NCBI GenBank assembly: GCA_964443675.1
Contig: CAYUDN010000001.1
Span: 10,862 to 74,861, forward strand
Direction of reading: 5' to 3'
Origin: an uncultured Candidatus Saccharibacteria bacterium
GTDB taxonomy: Bacteria; Patescibacteriota; Minisyncoccia; Phycocordibacterales; UBA5272
DNA length: 64,000 nt
Part shown: piece after piece, positions 3,461-25,091 of the stretch
Layout of the letters: each line of letters begins with the position of its first letter
How positions within the stretch are numbered: the first letter of the stretch is position 1
Program-made: the position numbers and the translations under genes
Notes under the pieces: model-generated
Seen by the model: only the letters and a program-made list of their open reading frames with translations
The model's database searches: none
What the model was told of the DNA's origin: nothing

Positions 3461-4384
3461 TTACAGAATATTCTTTTTTCTTTTTAGAATATACCTTTTT
3501 ATGTCATCTCGTATAAAACCAAGAAGAGGAATAAGTCCTTTGTAATACCAGATAATTACCAAAAGAACATGGAAAGCTTTAAGGATATTGCCTACTTTTA
3601 CGTTTGCTTTTGCAATAGCATAATAACTTCCCGGACAATTTTTGTAGTATGTTGCCAAAAACTCCTGGCGTAATGCTTCTGTTGGGTAGTGTGTTGAGAT
3701 GGTCTGATATAAGTTGTCCCAGTCTTTTTTAATTTCCATCACATTACGTTTGATAAGTCCTTCAAAACCGGTAGAGGTTTTACTTATGTGATAAATAACC
3801 GTCGGCTCATCAATAAAACCGACATCATGTTGACTTGCAATGCGAGACCACATTTCAGCGTCAGAAGACAAAGATTCAATAAAGAGACCGAGTTTATCAT
3901 ACACATTCTTTTTCACTAGTACCGCAGAGCAGACACCGTAGTGGCACTTCATTGCTTCTAATCCTGCATTCCAAAAAGGAGCTTGATTTTTTTTATGGTA
4001 TTCCTTAGTCGTATAGCTTCCTTCATTTACAGAGTAAGAGTTGGCATGGATAAGTGCAACGCTAGGATATTTTTTGGAAAAAGTTTCGTAGTGAGAAAGT
4101 GCCCCAGGAACCATCTCATCGTCCGCATGGAATATCATTAACCATTCTGTGTCACAAAGCTCAATACAACGGTTCCAGTTGTTAGCCATTCCGAGGTTGG
4201 TTTCATTTTGATAGCATGTTATTTGTGGTTCATATGCTTTCGCTATTGTGTAGGTTGTATCTGTTGACTTATTGTCAACAAGAATTACCTTTGTAGAGAT
4301 ATCTTTTTCAGCAAGGATACTTTGTAGGCATCGTTGTATAGTCTTTTCTTTATTGTAAGAAGGGATAGCAATAGTAAGGTTCAT
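3461..4384 (-). CDS. Glycosyltransferase family 2
   Basis: Carries 'LTIAIPSYNKEKTIQRCLQSILAE' and 'VILVDNKSTDTT', the GT2 signature. Its stop abuts the next gene's start. Confidence 0.75.
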   Translation of the reverse strand: MNLTIAIPSYNKEKTIQRCLQSILAEKDISTKVILVDNKSTDTTYTIAKAYEPQITCYQNETNLGMANNWNRCIELCDTEWLMIFHADDEMVPGALSHYETFSKKYPSVALIHANSYSVNEGSYTTKEYHKKNQAPFWNAGLEAMKCHYGVCSAVLVKKNVYDKLGLFIESLSSDAEMWSRIASQHDVGFIDEPTVIYHISKTSTGFEGLIKRNVMEIKKDWDNLYQTISTHYPTEALRQEFLATYYKNCPGSYYAIAKANVKVGNILKAFHVLLVIIWYYKGLIPLLGFIRDDIKRYILKRKKNIL

Positions 4385-17751: not shown

Positions 17752-18540
17752 TTACTTCATGTATCTTTTAAAAGACATTAATTTAATAAGGCGTAACAGT
17801 AGATATAAAGAAAATGTTGCTTTATAGGTTAAAGATTTTGATACCCCTTCATAAAAAAGTTTTGTAAGAGTTTCTATTTGCTCACTTAAGGTTCGTGTAC
17901 GAAAATTAAGACCGTGTGCTGCATCGTACCCATCTGAGATTGTACTATTGTGATCATAATAGTACATACCAGAAAGTAGCCCAAGCTGGTAGAAAAAGAA
18001 CCATTCCTCTCCTTGTTTTACTAACTGAGAAAAAAGGATTTTTTTGGTAGTAATAAGTTTAGATTCGATACAGTGTGTGGCGTCACCTTTACATCGTTTA
18101 AGAAGTAAGTACGACCAAGCATAAGAATATACGTGTTCGTCATGTGGAAATGTGGTCAATGAAGTTCCGTTTGAAAGTGCTCGATTGGTGACGAACCATT
18201 TTTGTTCAGAGTGTTGATGAATAAGTTTTGCAAATGTGGCAAGACAGTCTGGTGCAAGATAATCATCATCATCTAAAAAAATAACCCATCGTGAGTCTGC
18301 TGAAAGAAGACTAAGTGCACGGTTGCGTGAATAGTTAACACCACGATTATCAGTGTTTACATAATAGCGAATTCTTTGATCTTGTATTGTTGCAGCAAAA
18401 AGTTGGTAGGCAGTATCAGTTGGAGAGTCGTTGATAATAATCATCTCCCAGTCTTTGTAGGTTTGTGCAAGTACAGAAGCAACAGCTCGTTCGAGTTTCT
18501 CTTTTCTTCTAAAGGTTGGGGTGATGATGCTAAATTTCAT
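17752..18540 (-). CDS. Glycosyltransferase family 2
   Basis: 'MKFSIITPTFRRKEKLERAVASVLAQTYKDWEMIIINDSPTD' is the GT2 signature. The start is moved to ATG 18540 to avoid overlap with the upstream gene. Confidence 0.7.
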   Translation of the reverse strand: MKFSIITPTFRRKEKLERAVASVLAQTYKDWEMIIINDSPTDTAYQLFAATIQDQRIRYYVNTDNRGVNYSRNRALSLLSADSRWVIFLDDDDYLAPDCLATFAKLIHQHSEQKWFVTNRALSNGTSLTTFPHDEHVYSYAWSYLLLKRCKGDATHCIESKLITTKKILFSQLVKQGEEWFFFYQLGLLSGMYYYDHNSTISDGYDAAHGLNFRTRTLSEQIETLTKLFYEGVSKSLTYKATFSLYLLLRLIKLMSFKRYMK

Positions 18541-18547
18541 AGTATGA

Positions 18548-19240
18548 CTATACAAAACCAAGAATTTTTTTGAGCACTTTTTTAATGCCAAGGGTTTCTG
18601 CAATGTTTGTACCTATGCGATGGATTCCAAGTTTTTTGAATAGTCTGTTAAGTGGATGCCCCCATGAGTAGTTCCATAGATGAACTCCATACACGTCATG
18701 AGGGAGTGTTTGCCCTTTATAGTTTTTGATGGAATGAGCATCGAATGGGTAAAAAGCATGAGGTGGTGTTACCAAGGTGTCTTCAGGTTGTAACTCTTTA
18801 TAAAGTCTTGTCATGATGACTGGGTTAGGGGAAAGAGTGGTCATCGTGTCATATTCTTTTCGCATAGCTTCAATGAATGGGTGGTTTTTTGTTGCGCCGA
18901 TCATTCCACAACTGACGTAGGTATCAGATTCTTTTCCAAGAAGAAGAGAATGGTCGATAAGTGGGGTGAGCGACTGAAGAAGGAGCATGTCTGTATCAAG
19001 ATATATGCCTCCTTCTTGAAGAAGTGCAACAAGGCGTACGTAATCGGCCACAAAGGCATATTTCTTTTCTCCATACATTTTTTTTGTGAAGGGGTGGCTT
19101 GTTACATCAAAAGTTTCTTCATTCCACTCTTGCAAAGAGTAGTCTGGGCATGTTTTTTGCCAACTTTCAATGCAGCGAGTAATTAGTTCGCTCTTAGGTT
19201 TTTTGCCGAACCAGCAATAGTGGATTTTTTTAGGAATCAT
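18548..19240 (-). CDS. Glycosyltransferase (GT32/capsule-type DXD family, tentative)
   Basis: 'MIPKKIHYCWFGKKPKSELITRCIESWQK' resembles the Gly_transf_sug N-terminal motif of mannosyl/capsular transferases. The start codon is ambiguous between 19273 and 19240. Confidence 0.5.
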   Translation of the reverse strand: MIPKKIHYCWFGKKPKSELITRCIESWQKTCPDYSLQEWNEETFDVTSHPFTKKMYGEKKYAFVADYVRLVALLQEGGIYLDTDMLLLQSLTPLIDHSLLLGKESDTYVSCGMIGATKNHPFIEAMRKEYDTMTTLSPNPVIMTRLYKELQPEDTLVTPPHAFYPFDAHSIKNYKGQTLPHDVYGVHLWNYSWGHPLNRLFKKLGIHRIGTNIAETLGIKKVLKKILGFV

Positions 19241-19353
19241 AATGAGTTTGTGAGGATGTATATAGTATAACATTCCTGGGGTCTGTCACTCTAGGATACG
19301 ATACCCACTCTATGGTACACTTTGCCTATTATTCTTGGTAAAAGAAGTATTGT

Positions 19354-21570
19354 ATGCAAAATATCATTAAAAAAGTAGTCTGGGGCTGTTTGCTTATTAT
19401 CCCGTTCATCGCTCTTCATGTGGGAGATATGGGTCTTATTGATGTGTTTAAGTGGTTTGGTTCTTCCGGAATGTTTTTCCCATTTATTTCTGGTAAGAAT
19501 CTTTTGTTTAGAATTTTGGTTGAGGTTGCTTTTGCTGGTTGGGCTGTTCTTGCACTTCATGATTCATCGTATCGTGTAAAAGTGCTTAAATCGCCAATTA
19601 TGATTGCTTACGGTCTCTTTATGATCGTGCTCTTTTTTGCTGACATGTTCGGCGTTGATCGTGAGAAGAGTATGTGGAGTAACTTTGAAAGAATGGAAGG
19701 TTTTGTCGGACATATTCATCTTTTCGCATACTTTTTCGTTCTTACGGTAATGGTTCGTTCTCTTGATGAGTGGAGAAAAGTATGGAAAGTTTTTTTGGCT
19801 GCAGATATTCTCATGCTTATTGTTGGAGCTTTTCAGTTGATTGGCGCAAGAGGTCTCTATTTTTCTAAGCACGCACCTGCTCTTTCTGATTGGTTTAACG
19901 AAAGGTTCCCGATCCATCAGAGTGCTATTCGTGTGGACGGAACTATTGGTAACTCTGCATACTTTGGTGTCTTTTGTCTTATCTATATTTTTATTACGGC
20001 AATGCTTTGGTCACAAGAACGTCAGTTCAAGAAGCATTACGGATATCTTGCGCTTATCATTGCAAACGTGATTGGCGTTCTCTATTCAGGTACTCGTGGA
20101 ACAATGGTTGGTCTTGTGGTTGCAACGTTTATTACCTTGGGTATTTTGGCCTTCAAAGAAAGAGGAGTTCTGCGTAAGCGGTTTATTATTGGTACTGTCA
20201 TTTTTGCGGTACTTATTGGTTCATTGTTTGTGTTTAAGAATACAACTTTTGTACAGTCATACCCGGTACTTGCTCGTATTGCAAGTATTTCCCCAAACGA
20301 TATTACTGGTATGAGTCGTCTCTCTATGTGGAAAATTAGTTACAAGGCATGGTTGGAGAGGCCGATTCTTGGGTATGGCCAAGATAACTTCAGTCATATC
20401 TTTGCACGTAAATTTATCTCAGATAAGATGTGTAATCTTGAGCCTTGGTATGACAGGTCTCATGATGTGTTCTTTGATTGGCTTGTTGCGGCTGGAGCGC
20501 TTGGGTTGCTTACCTACCTCTCTTTGTACGGCGTTACTCTTTGGTTTATGTGGAAGAAGAAAGGGCACGATATGTCTCTTGAAGAAAAGTCTATTCTCAC
20601 CGGACTTATTGCCGGATACTTTGTCCATAATATCTTTGTATTTGATAACCTTACAAGTTACATCCTTTTCTTCGCTATTCTTGCGTACATTACTGTACGT
20701 ACCAGGGAAGCATTTCCTGATAAGAAGCAGCCTCTTTTTGATAACGATCAAATGAATCTTCTTATTGTTCCGTTGATCGCGATCGCTCTTGTGGTGACAC
20801 AATATTTTGTCAATGTGCGACCACTTATTGTTAATAACTTGATTATTAAGGCAATGACTTTAAGCCAGTACATGAAGACAATGCCATTCTCAGATGCGCT
20901 CAAGATGAGTCAGACAGCGTTTACTGATGCTATTGCAATGAATACTCTCGGAAGTATTGAGGCTAGAGAGCAGTTTATGCAAATGTCGGTCCATGTCGGG
21001 CAAATCAAACTGCCAGAATCTCTTGCAGTGGGTGAGAAACAGATTGCGGCTCAGGCAATTAATAATTATCTTCTTGCTGCAAAAGACGAGGTTGAAAAGT
21101 CTCTCCCTCGATACCAAGAAGATGTGAGAATGCTTTCTATCTATGGACTCTTTTTCTTAGGTTTTGGTGACGGTGCTACAGGAGAAAAAATCTTAGGAGA
21201 CGCACATCGTCTTGCTCCGGGTAAGCAGTTAATTTCTTATGACCTTATACGTGCAATGTTACTACAACGAAAAACTGTAGAAGCATATACACTTGCAAAG
21301 GAAACATATGAACTCTCGGATGTATGTCATGATGCTGATCGCTGGCTTTTGATTGGTGCTGCGTATGCAGGGAAATATAAAGAAGGTGAGGCAATGATCC
21401 TTGCAAAAGGAAAAGTCCCTCCTCTTGATGTTGATATTGTTGCAGGGGTGCTCGCGTCTAATCAAACAGGTGTCGCGATTGAACTTCTTAATAAGTTGAA
21501 AGCAAAAGACCCAAGTCTTGCGCCTCAAATTGATCAGTATATTAAGCAGCTCCTTGCAGGAAAGAAATAG
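19354..21570 (+). CDS. O-antigen ligase/polymerase-like (Wzy/WaaL family) membrane protein with C-terminal soluble TPR-like domain
   Basis: More than 10 TM helices. The 'SRLSMWKISYKAWLERPILGYGQDNF' periplasmic loop motif is typical of O-antigen ligase-like proteins. The roughly 250-aa C-terminal helical domain is repeat-like. Confidence 0.6.
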   Translation: MQNIIKKVVWGCLLIIPFIALHVGDMGLIDVFKWFGSSGMFFPFISGKNLLFRILVEVAFAGWAVLALHDSSYRVKVLKSPIMIAYGLFMIVLFFADMFGVDREKSMWSNFERMEGFVGHIHLFAYFFVLTVMVRSLDEWRKVWKVFLAADILMLIVGAFQLIGARGLYFSKHAPALSDWFNERFPIHQSAIRVDGTIGNSAYFGVFCLIYIFITAMLWSQERQFKKHYGYLALIIANVIGVLYSGTRGTMVGLVVATFITLGILAFKERGVLRKRFIIGTVIFAVLIGSLFVFKNTTFVQSYPVLARIASISPNDITGMSRLSMWKISYKAWLERPILGYGQDNFSHIFARKFISDKMCNLEPWYDRSHDVFFDWLVAAGALGLLTYLSLYGVTLWFMWKKKGHDMSLEEKSILTGLIAGYFVHNIFVFDNLTSYILFFAILAYITVRTREAFPDKKQPLFDNDQMNLLIVPLIAIALVVTQYFVNVRPLIVNNLIIKAMTLSQYMKTMPFSDALKMSQTAFTDAIAMNTLGSIEAREQFMQMSVHVGQIKLPESLAVGEKQIAAQAINNYLLAAKDEVEKSLPRYQEDVRMLSIYGLFFLGFGDGATGEKILGDAHRLAPGKQLISYDLIRAMLLQRKTVEAYTLAKETYELSDVCHDADRWLLIGAAYAGKYKEGEAMILAKGKVPPLDVDIVAGVLASNQTGVAIELLNKLKAKDPSLAPQIDQYIKQLLAGKK

Positions 21571-21633
21571 TCTTGCTACACTATACCTTGTGAGCGCACC
21601 ATAAGGTGTGCCCTACAAGATAAATAAATGCCT

Positions 21634-21690
21634 AACGTAAATGAGTCACCTAAAAAGTGACTCTTTACGTTTTGTGGAAAAGTCGTAGTT
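21634..21690 (+). terminator. Rho-independent terminator of the Wzy-like gene
   Basis: 15-bp stem aacgtaaatgagtcac / gtgactctttacgtt with a 7-nt loop, followed by a T-rich run. Confidence 0.55.
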
Positions 21691-21695
21691 TTTTC

Positions 21696-21724
21696 TTGAA
21701 AAATATTTTTATACCTTGTACAAT
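21696..21724 (+). promoter_or_regulatory. Consensus-like sigma70 promoter (TTGAAA-N17-TACAAT) in the intergenic region
   Basis: TTGAAA at 21696-21701, a 17-nt spacer, and TACAAT at 21719-21724. There is no protein-coding ORF downstream before the hairpin at 21826-21870. Confidence 0.4.
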
Positions 21725-21730
21725 AGAGTG

Positions 21731-21872
21731 GTGGTTCTCATCGCGCATAGTTGCGGTGAGCGACTGCGCTCACATAAGGCATTTATCTTTGGAGCATGCC
21801 ACGCTCACCACAACTGGGCGGGAGGCAAAATAAATGACGCATAATTGCATCGCAATTATGCGTCATTTATTT
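21731..21872 (+). ncRNA. Candidate small non-coding RNA (about 140 nt), unknown family
   Basis: Bounded by the promoter above and a perfect 21-bp palindrome with a 3-nt loop at 21826-21870. It contains the internal hairpin gtgagcg-actg-cgctcac. No match to tmRNA, SRP or RNase P motifs was recognised. Confidence 0.25.
21826..21870. terminator. Perfect 21-bp inverted repeat (aaataaatgacgcataattgc-atc-gcaattatgcgtcatttattt), bidirectional terminator-like
   Basis: Read directly from the sequence. It lies between the convergent Wzy-like/sRNA region and the tsaD 3' end. Confidence 0.5.
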
Positions 21873-21924
21873 TATCTCTCGCTTCTAATGTCTGTTACGT
21901 AGCGTCTAACACTTAGTACTCACT

Positions 21925-23106
21925 CTAGCACTCTCCTACAGACCAGCTTCCTTTTGCTTGCAACTTTGCTCTTGGGGTTTCATCGTGTGCGAGATGAAGC
22001 AACCCAGTCGATGCAATCATGAGACCGTTATCAGTAGAGAGGTTACGATTAGGAATGAAGAGACTGAAGCCTTCTGCTTCTGCAAGATTCTTAAGTGCAA
22101 AGCGCAAATGGCTGTTAGCACTTACTCCACCACCAACAATAAGAGTGCTTGCTCGTGTTTCGTACATTGCTTGTTTTACTTTTGCAATAAGTACATCGGT
22201 GACCGCGTTTTCAAATTCAAGGGCAAGCATACGCCTAGTTCTATCGTTAAGAGGGGTTACTTTTTTGGTACGTACAAGCACAGCAGTTTTTAGTCCGCTA
22301 AAAGAAAAGTGAAGATCGCCACTATGAATCATCGGACGAGGAAGGCGAAGCATTTCATCAACCACAAGACCTTCTTTGCGTGCATGTTCTGCAAGACGAG
22401 AAATCTCTGGCCCTCCAGGGTAGGGGAGGTCAAGCATTCGTGCTGCTTTGTCGAAGGCTTCTCCTACGGCGTCATCTTTAGTCTTGCCGATAACTTTGTA
22501 GCTACGAAGTTTTGGGATGTACACGAGTTCAGTGTGTCCACCTGAAACAAGGAGTGCACACGCAGGAAGTTCCGCATCTGATATTTCGTAGACATCGTCA
22601 GAGGCAGAAATAAGCCCCGCAATAATATGACCTTCCATGTGATTAACTGGATAAAGAGGAATATCCCAGATAAGATGCATGGCATGAGCAGCGTTGATAC
22701 CAACCCAGAGTGCTGGCTCAAGACCAGGGCCTTCGGTGACGGCAATAGCGTCCACAAGAGGTTTTTGTATTCCTCCAAAGAGTACTTTCATTGCACTTAA
22801 CATTTCAGGTTCTCGCTCAAGAAGGGTTTCTAGTTTTTTGCGCTCCGCTGCAGGGATATGATAGGTGTTTGTGCGTTCAACAAGGAGTCCTGCTTCTTCG
22901 AGTGCTTCTGCAATAAGTTGGGTAATTGCTTTAGTGTGTTCTCGTTTAGCAAGCGCAGGAAAGACACCCCCATACTCTTTGTGAAGATCAATTTGAGAAA
23001 GCACTTTATGAGAAAGTACTTCGAAGCGAACTTGTTTGCCACGAACACGCTTTACAACCGCTATTGCGGTTTCGTCACAACTGGTTTCGATAGCAAGAAG
23101 AATCAT
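21925..23106 (-). CDS. tsaD: tRNA N6-adenosine threonylcarbamoyltransferase TsaD (Kae1/TsaD family)
   Basis: 'LAIETSCDETAIAVV' N-terminal motif, HxxH metal-binding region and C-terminal 'GGVSAN' block. The ORF-track start at 23139 is a TTG, and the ATG at 23106 (MILLAIETSCDE) is preferred. Longer than typical TsaD because of internal and C-terminal insertions. Confidence 0.85.
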   Translation of the reverse strand: MILLAIETSCDETAIAVVKRVRGKQVRFEVLSHKVLSQIDLHKEYGGVFPALAKREHTKAITQLIAEALEEAGLLVERTNTYHIPAAERKKLETLLEREPEMLSAMKVLFGGIQKPLVDAIAVTEGPGLEPALWVGINAAHAMHLIWDIPLYPVNHMEGHIIAGLISASDDVYEISDAELPACALLVSGGHTELVYIPKLRSYKVIGKTKDDAVGEAFDKAARMLDLPYPGGPEISRLAEHARKEGLVVDEMLRLPRPMIHSGDLHFSFSGLKTAVLVRTKKVTPLNDRTRRMLALEFENAVTDVLIAKVKQAMYETRASTLIVGGGVSANSHLRFALKNLAEAEGFSLFIPNRNLSTDNGLMIASTGLLHLAHDETPRAKLQAKGSWSVGEC

Positions 23107-24826: not shown

Positions 24827-24834
24827 GTACTCGT

Positions 24835-24906
24835 GGACAGTAGAGGATTCGAACCTCTGACATCTACAACGTCAATGTAGCGCTCTACCAACTGAGCTAA
24901 CCGTCC
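24835..24906 (-). tRNA. tRNA-Val (anticodon GAC)
   Basis: Manual fold of the reverse complement: acceptor GGACGGT/ACTGTCC, D-arm GCTC-AGTTGGTA-GAGC, anticodon stem CTACA/TGTAG with loop TTGACGT (GAC), T-arm AGAGG-TTCGAAT-CCTCT and discriminator A. Confidence 0.85.
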
Positions 24907-25016: not shown

Positions 25017-25091
25017 GGCCCCATCGTCTATCGGTTAGGACATCGGCTTTTCATGCCGGTAAGCGGAGTTCGACTCTCCGTAGGGTCACCA
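25017..25091 (+). tRNA. tRNA-Glu (anticodon UUC), CCA encoded
   Basis: Collinear with E. coli tRNA-Glu: acceptor GGCCCCA/TAGGGTC (one C-A mismatch, one G-U), D-stem GTCT/GGAC, anticodon stem TCGGC/GCCGG with loop TTTTCAT (TTC), T-arm CGGAG-TTCGACT-CTCCG and encoded CCA. Confidence 0.75.

Follow-up and report, generated by a model that had tools for sequence, protein, structure and literature searches.

The 354-bp spacer at positions 21571-21924 of the window, by which is meant here the whole stretch of 64,000 nucleotides analysed, separates two convergent protein genes, a Wzy-like gene on the + strand and tsaD on the - strand, and it carries a promoter, hairpins, a perfect palindrome and a long imperfect inverted repeat. 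The question raised by this arrangement is whether the spacer holds a small RNA (sRNA) or a decayed miniature inverted-repeat transposable element (MITE), the two readings offered by the original prediction, or only the terminators of the adjoining genes. The comparison of related loci indicates that it very probably contains two independent conserved sRNA genes, here called sRNA-A and sRNA-B, plus a shared bidirectional terminator. That these two genes, in tandem on the + strand and specific to one clade, act as an sRNA/anti-sRNA pair is the reading which the sequences make probable. The small regulatory RNA of the original prediction is supported, since its promoter, structured body and palindromic terminator are conserved with compensatory changes in about 30 species. 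Three features had been missed: the upstream sRNA gene at 21590-21674, the complementarity between RNAs of the same strand, and the sharing of a terminator with tsaD.

Anatomy and conservation of the two genes

The relatives were collected by a tsaD-based scan, with one genome per species, which gave 80 loci. Orthologues of tsaD (68-87% identity) anchor all the related loci, and the closest of these, with TsaD in this range of identity, all belong to uncultured Patescibacteria labelled Nomurabacteria, Paceibacterota or Parcubacteria. The window itself was accordingly placed in a Patescibacteria genome of the Nomurabacteria/Paceibacterota type. When the spacer was compared with the related loci by BLAST, the segment 21748-21834, containing the core of sRNA-B, was found to be about 92% identical in about 30 species. 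It is better conserved than the adjoining coding DNA, the TsaD protein being only 68-87% identical there. A second conserved block, at about 21590-21673, corresponds to sRNA-A, and its distance from the first varies. Motif mapping found A and B once each per locus and always in the order A then B; both blocks are always downstream of tsaD and on the opposite strand, and their syntenic position is shared by about 30 species. The separation between A and B ranges from 0.13 to 1.26 kb across the loci, and its content varies. Some genomes have 0.5-1.2 kb of unrelated cargo between A and B, or between B and tsaD, and the B units are intact where cargo genes part them from A or from tsaD. The insertion of cargo genes between A and B in some genomes shows A and B to be separate units. 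The spacer also folds better than its dinucleotide shuffles (z = -10.4), and the same holds for 21731-21882 (z = -10.2).

The spacers around both sRNA genes seem to be a preferred site of gene insertion. The cargo between A and B comprises, in locus L008 (2315-3202), a restriction-endonuclease-like open reading frame (ORF) of 176 aa and a membrane ORF of 117 aa and, in locus L005 (11417-12028), a histidine-phosphatase-like ORF of 203 aa. An ORF of 150 aa lies between sRNA-B and tsaD in locus L002 (11263-11715), and small membrane ORFs are also among the cargo examples in related loci.

From its motifs, sRNA-B would be transcribed on the + strand from 21731 to 21875 as an RNA of about 145 nt, with a short variable 5' hairpin, a long hairpin and a terminator. 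Its promoter (21696-21724, + strand), already recognised in the original prediction, consists of TTGAAA (21696-21701), a 17-nt spacer and TACAAT (21719-21724), and it agrees with the consensus at 10 of 12 positions. The pattern TTGnnn-N16-18-TAnAnT is present in 25 of the 30 orthologous B loci, the alignment consensus being cTTGAAa-N17-TAyACT, and the TAnAnT -10 box aligns in every B locus having upstream sequence. The long hairpin is made up of an outer stem (21741-21754 / 21810-21823), which covaries freely, and a near-invariant core of 57 nt (21755-21811) with the consensus GGUGrGCGACyGCGCUCACAUAAGGCAyUUAUcUUUGGAGCAUGCCmCGCUCACCAC. In the core, the comparative data support an inner stem formed by GGUGAGCG (21755-21762) and CGCUCACC (21802-21809), and a 17-nt apical loop, AUAAGGCAUUUAUCUUU, is predicted at 21774-21790.

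RNAalifold, applied to 30 B sequences, gave 28 pairs, 10 of which show compensatory double changes, all of them in the outer stem; one such pair is A:U in 19 sequences, C:G in 10 and U:A in one. Helix 2 and seven of the helix-1 pairs show no variation across the 30 species. The structure has 97.5% of its cells paired; none of 500 shuffles reached the observed values, and slid controls gave 37-50%. The strand is indicated by G:U pairs, found in 23 of 30 sequences at columns 42/90 and in 28 of 30 at columns 31/101, which would be A:C mismatches on the opposite strand and therefore place the RNA on the + strand; the B covariance model scores 118.5 bits on this strand versus 25.4 bits on the - strand. 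Indels of 1 nt occur within the core (TTATCTTT versus TTAT-TTT in 10 of 30 sequences, CACATAAGG versus CACAT-AGG in 3 of 30), the flanking nucleotides being invariant. In a core otherwise without change they exclude a reading frame, and sRNA-B is thus non-coding.

The fold of the core can be drawn in two ways, as the motif GGTGAGCG has two complementary partners further downstream. A local hairpin, gtgagcg-act-gcgctcac (21756-21773), had been proposed and can indeed be formed on paper, but the covariation favours the GGUGAGCG/CGCUCACC stem. In locus L025 a U-to-A change in GGUG is compensated by a change in the distal CGCUCACC (U:A to A:U), and the proximal copy in L030 carries a G-to-A change that is left uncompensated; taken together, the two cases favour the distal pairing over the local hairpin.

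sRNA-A would extend on the + strand from 21590 to 21674, about 85 nt, these ends being predicted from its motifs, and it consists of a 5' hairpin, a seed and an intrinsic terminator. Its promoter (21554-21582, + strand) is composed of TTGCAG (21554-21559), a 17-nt spacer and TACACT (21577-21582). The final codons of the Wzy-like gene are inside this promoter, and its stop codon TAG (21568-21570) falls in the promoter spacer. A simple promoter scan missed the element because its -35 hexamer matches at only 3 of 6 positions. The pattern TT[G/T]nnn-N16-18-TAnAnT recurs in 24 of the 26 orthologous A loci, always ending 6-7 nt before a conserved GTGAG, and the promoter is retained where the upstream gene differs. 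The 5' hairpin (21590-21616, + strand) has the sequence GUGAGCGCACC-AUAA-GGUGUGCCCUAC and is followed by the invariant single-stranded seed ACAAGAUAAAUAAAUGCCU (21615-21633, + strand), whose first two bases, AC, close the hairpin.

The terminator hairpin of sRNA-A (21634-21671, + strand) has arms at 21634-21649 and 21657-21671 and a U-run at 21670-21673. A terminator had been placed at 21634-21690; the hairpin and the TTTT at 21670-21673 are there, and the end at 21690 was set too far. The alignment of 29 distinct A orthologues yields a consensus of 17 pairs, in which the seed is unpaired. Compensatory double changes are seen at 10 of these pairs, most of which belong to the terminator. Pairs of U:G in the orthologous terminator stems put this RNA, too, on the + strand. 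With a promoter and a terminator that are both conserved, sRNA-A is a predicted unit of its own, beyond a terminator of the Wzy-like gene.

The distribution of both RNAs was followed with two covariance models, R1 and R2. R2 recognises the sRNA-A site with 70 bits (E = 8e-11), the sole site in the window. In the searched loci with TsaD identity of 53% or less, neither R1 nor R2 gave a credible match near tsaD. Both RNAs therefore seem to be restricted to one clade of the Patescibacteria.

The perfect 21-bp palindrome with a 3-nt loop is present, at 21828-21872, 2 nt away from the position first given. Its arms lie at 21828-21848 and 21852-21872, and it extends to 31-nt arms at 90% complementarity; by chance 0.01 matches would be expected, and none of 100 shuffles yielded two. 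It consists of a G+C-rich stem (21836-21848 / 21852-21864) between an A-tract (21828-21835) and a T-tract (21865-21875), and a terminator scan gave matches on both strands (21829-21871 and 21851-21836). Every orthologue has a hairpin of different sequence at this position, with an A-tract upstream and a T-tract downstream. Such an arrangement gives a U-tail on either strand and is that of a bidirectional intrinsic terminator, which would serve sRNA-B on the + strand and tsaD, whose stop codon is 52 nt from the palindrome, on the - strand. The palindrome is thus, as judged from its make-up, an ordinary bidirectional intrinsic terminator common to sRNA-B and tsaD. It resembles the known bidirectional terminators in its G+C-rich hairpin, its A-tract and T-tract flanks and its place between convergent units. 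Compared with these there is nothing unusual in it, the perfect symmetry over 21 bp being the extension of the stem by the A-tract and T-tract.

Complementarity between sRNA-A and sRNA-B

The long imperfect inverted repeat reported at 21585-21640 / 21765-21812 is real in that colinear blocks of 10 nt (100%), 15 nt (87%) and 9 nt (100%) can be aligned. Judged from the window sequence by itself it is modest, the score of the chained local alignment, 30, being reached by 12 of 1000 dinucleotide shuffles. With both genes in place, this repeat is the complementarity between two putative RNAs transcribed from the same strand. It was seen as the inverted repeats I4, I6 and I10, of which I4 and I10 form the seed-loop part. 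The loop segment of sRNA-B at 21777-21789 (+ strand), AGGCAUUUAUCUU, is complementary to the seed of sRNA-A at 21617-21633, AAGAUAAAUAAAUGCCU. On paper the contact has two short helices and a 4-nt bulge, about 13 bp in total, and RNAduplex gave -17.5 kcal/mol for the accessible parts of A and B.

The two segments change together. In all 39 two-gene loci (39/39), UAUCUU in B is accompanied by AAGAUA in A, and UAUUUU in B by AAAAUA or AAAAUG in A, that is, a switch from C:G to U:A. In the 9 distinct A/B haplotype pairs the pairing covers 94.9% of cells, with G:U wobbles produced by two A-to-G changes in A. The A/B covariation score was reached by 2 of 500 shuffles, for these 9 haplotype pairs and a single switching pair (C:G to U:A). 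The interleaving of the C:G and U:A states in a neighbour-joining tree of TsaD would speak for more than one switch, though this tree is weak and built from a single protein.

The mechanism that could be drawn from these data is a simple one. sRNA-A has the layout of a classical base-pairing sRNA, with a 5' hairpin, an A/U-rich single-stranded seed and a Rho-independent terminator. Its seed would pair with the apical loop of sRNA-B in a contact of loop to single strand, as in antisense RNA pairs. One RNA might then titrate or antagonise the other in the manner of an sRNA and its anti-sRNA (sponge), and the free partner would act on messenger RNAs (mRNAs) or on a protein. That the pairing of A with B is functional appears to us an evenly balanced proposition, and the mutual pairing is a testable hypothesis.

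Several observations weigh against this scheme. The TsaD tree is too weak for counting independent switches, and only one intermolecular pair covaries. At one position there is an A:C mismatch in 4 of the 9 haplotype pairs, and the lineage of L027, L082 and L086 has an extra mismatch between seed and loop. RNAcofold, run with full-length A and B, gave a free-energy difference (ddG) of -4.4 kcal/mol, the same as with shuffled seeds, and the loop-seed contact was not chosen; the loop-to-seed contact is a pseudoknot, which this model is unable to represent, and the calculation is therefore uninformative. When the window was scanned for duplexes without constraint, several partners of the B loop were equally good, the A site being one of them. 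The change of CGCUCACC in L025 is compensated within B and not in A, so that A and B probably do not meet in the GUGAGCG/CGCUCAC part of the repeat. Transcription and the RNA ends were predicted from motifs alone. Finally, the whole 57-nt core of B is invariant, at paired positions too, and this exceeds what pairing with a 17-nt seed needs, which hints at a further ligand, such as a protein.

In the lineage with the extra mismatch (L027, 6300-6325; L082, 2275-2300; L086), the A seed reads AAUAAGAGCCU instead of AAUAAAUGCCU. The added G might form a pair with the C in the GGCAC variant of the B loop, perhaps as a partial compensation, but an adjoining A:A mismatch is introduced as well.

The RNAduplex scan of the window for targets of A and B brought out no stand-out mRNA site. 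In 12-mer scans over about 45 related loci (about 0.9 Mb), the partner RNA was the sole recurrent or conserved partner, and no mRNA target was found.

Alternative explanations and known RNA families

The alternative that survives best takes sRNA-B as mainly a protein-binding or structural RNA of the clade, of a housekeeping-like kind. Its complementarity to A would be secondary, A being either the remnant of an inverted partial duplication or a dedicated antisense regulator. We consider this unlikely, though worth serious attention. The near-invariance of the core at its paired positions beside a freely covarying outer stem is in keeping with it. The same is true of the GUGAGCG common to A and B and of the colinear A/B match of about 45 nt, such as an inverted duplication would produce, and no third-party target was seen in the related loci scanned. 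The distribution is narrow for such an RNA, however, with no credible match in the searched loci at the lower TsaD identities given above. The Rfam models of the signal recognition particle (SRP) RNA, 6S RNA, transfer-messenger RNA (tmRNA), RNase P and Y RNA are without a match even at E = 10, and no RNA-binding protein gene consistently adjoins the locus. In its fullest form, sRNA-B would be a clade-specific ribonucleoprotein or ligand-binding RNA of these bacteria with reduced genomes and a probably symbiotic life, sRNA-A a linked antisense regulator that arose by inverted partial duplication of B, and the whole an undescribed two-RNA module. An important role of this kind, if true, would explain the near-invariant core; the proposal itself we regard as doubtful.

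Known families were searched with Rfam 15, using a cut-off of E = 10 for the segment 20500-23000 and the gathering thresholds for the entire window and for four orthologous loci. The gathering-level matches in the window and these loci were only tRNAs, and neither A nor B was among them; the comparison with Rfam suggested in the original prediction thus returned no known family at gathering score. Two models matched the terminator palindrome only, RF00766 (mir-335, a eukaryotic microRNA family) with 34.2 bits (gathering score 64) and RF02629 (RmaA) with 23.9 bits (gathering score 57). What these families have in common with the locus is a long A/U-rich hairpin shape, and both matches were rejected as artefacts of it. 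A likeness to SRP RNA was noted by eye, GGAGCAUGCC/AAGGCA recalling the AGG/AGCA of helix 8, and was rejected as well, there being no GNAR-type apical stem and no covariance-model match. 6S RNA, two-piece tmRNA and 5S RNA have the wrong size and shape and gave no ARAGORN or Rfam match; no tmRNA was found by ARAGORN.

Returning to two sRNA genes as the preferred reading, a simpler possibility is that there are no independent RNAs, only terminators or 3'-untranslated-region elements of the Wzy-like gene and tsaD. Both hairpins with T-runs do lie just 3' of stop codons, and bidirectional terminators are common between convergent genes. Yet the best-conserved sequence is between the terminators and exceeds the flanking coding DNA in conservation, and it is preceded by -35 and -10 motifs of its own that are conserved. 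The G:U pairs put B on the strand opposite to tsaD, the A promoter is kept beside a differing upstream gene, and B is intact despite cargo. This possibility therefore seems to us quite improbable.

For a cis-acting riboswitch or leader there is a conserved, aptamer-like core in B directly before a terminator, and in several species the long stem of this terminator overlaps with the 3' strand of the outer helix. Such an element would have nothing downstream to regulate, the next gene, tsaD, being convergent in most genomes, and no Rfam riboswitch model matches, which leaves very little room for it.

The decayed MITE, or another mobile repeat, was suggested by an intergenic site with several inverted repeats, one long and imperfect and one a perfect palindrome; in being intergenic and rich in inverted repeats the locus does resemble MITEs and repeats of the repetitive extragenic palindromic (REP) type. 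Dispersed copies, which such an element should have left, were sought by BLAST and by pattern search over the window, 92 loci, and metagenome and viral collections. BLAST, pattern and covariance-model searches found no second copy of either RNA within the 64-kb window. A 25-nt pattern from the B core was present in only 12 stretches of the metagenome collection, with a single match in each, one of these being on a 775-kb contig, which is near the size of a whole genome of the Candidate Phyla Radiation (CPR); in viral contigs the pattern had no match. Unlike such repeats, the locus is single-copy and syntenic, with one copy per related locus at a site fixed relative to tsaD across about 30 species, and neither bounding terminal inverted repeats nor insertion polymorphism accompany it. 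Each "arm" is a unit from promoter to terminator, and the palindrome differs in sequence from species to species and keeps the shape of a terminator. A mobile origin can hardly be upheld on these data.

A small protein, read from a leaderless GUG-initiated ORF of about 37 codons starting at 21731, in frame with a 42-aa ORF (21716-21844), deserves almost no credence: the frame is open in the window and many genes of this genome look leaderless, but the 1-nt indels of the core shift it, the open frames differ between species, and variation follows base pairing without an excess at third positions.

The two sRNA genes are best compared with RNAs of familiar kinds. With trans-encoded base-pairing sRNAs of the enterobacterial Hfq type, such as RyhB and ChiX, they have in common a sigma-70-type promoter of their own, a length of about 85-145 nt, an intergenic position, a 5' structure, a single-stranded seed or loop that is conserved, and a U-tailed intrinsic terminator. 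They differ in that there is no relationship in sequence or in Rfam, in that the host is an uncultured CPR bacterium, and in that the core of B is far more invariant than the body of a typical sRNA. Among the antisense systems that start with a loop contact are CopA/CopT, RNAI/RNAII and Sok/hok, in which the partners are encoded in cis on opposite strands and are perfectly complementary. The resemblance to these lies in the apical loop of a long hairpin that is complementary to its partner, with an imperfect duplex of about 45 nt possible on paper; A and B, in contrast, are separate genes on the same strand with partial complementarity, and no plasmid or toxin is involved.

Pairs of an sRNA and an anti-sRNA are known also from SroC-GcvB and RosA-RoxS. 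Sponge pairs of AgvB or AsxR against GcvB or FnrS in enterohaemorrhagic Escherichia coli (EHEC) are reported in PMC4104026. The likeness to sponge pairs consists in two small RNAs with complementary accessible regions, by which titration is possible. A and B differ from them as neighbours on the same strand that are co-inherited throughout the clade, and their pairing was deduced from sequence and one coordinated change. They are new sRNA families of a familiar kind and represent no new kind of mechanism, sRNAs, sponges and bidirectional terminators being already well known.

Leaderless starts and flanking genes

A large share of bacterial diversity falls in the CPR, whose members are mostly uncultured and have small genomes in which few regulators can be recognised. 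Literature searches on sRNAs in CPR, Patescibacteria and Nomurabacteria found nothing relevant. The locus provides two clean sRNA families outside the Rfam models, each with a defined promoter, terminator and structure and with covariation support. It could serve as an entry point for the mining of metatranscriptomes and for the study of RNA regulation where many mRNAs appear to be leaderless. In the window, many long ORFs have a -10-like hexamer TAYACT/TACAAT only 1-12 nt before the ATG and no Shine-Dalgarno sequence; examples are the starts at 4384 (-), 5792 (+), 40189 (-), 44055 (-), 46072 (-), 53156 (+) and 62089 (+). This arrangement suggests that leaderless or very short-leader mRNAs may be widespread in this genome. 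The -10 boxes of both sRNA promoters are of the type seen at these ORF starts.

The Wzy-like gene (19354-21570, + strand) encodes a membrane protein of 738 aa with an O-antigen-ligase-like Wzy_C domain (Pfam E = 7.3e-18); an exact-protein look-up of its product matched no record. Orthologues of this gene are found upstream of sRNA-A in most of the related loci. Two glycosyltransferase genes (GT2; DXD sugar-binding type) stand beside the Wzy_C-like gene (17752-19273 on the - strand and 19354-21570 on the + strand), and together with it they form a small surface-polysaccharide cluster reaching as far as the sRNA-A promoter.

On the other side, tsaD (21925-23106, - strand), convergent with sRNA-B, encodes a protein of 393 aa (Pfam TsaD, E = 1.4e-75). 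The G+C content of the window is 40%, and its only gathering-level Rfam matches are the divergent genes of tRNA-Val(GAC) at 24833-24906 (-) and tRNA-Glu(UUC) at 25017-25091 (+). The TsaD protein contains an extra segment of about 50 aa, roughly at residues 80-125 (...LEEAGLLVERTNTYHIPAAERKKLETLLEREPEMLSAMKVLF...). The Pfam match to the protein falls in two stretches, and the insert is kept in close relatives.

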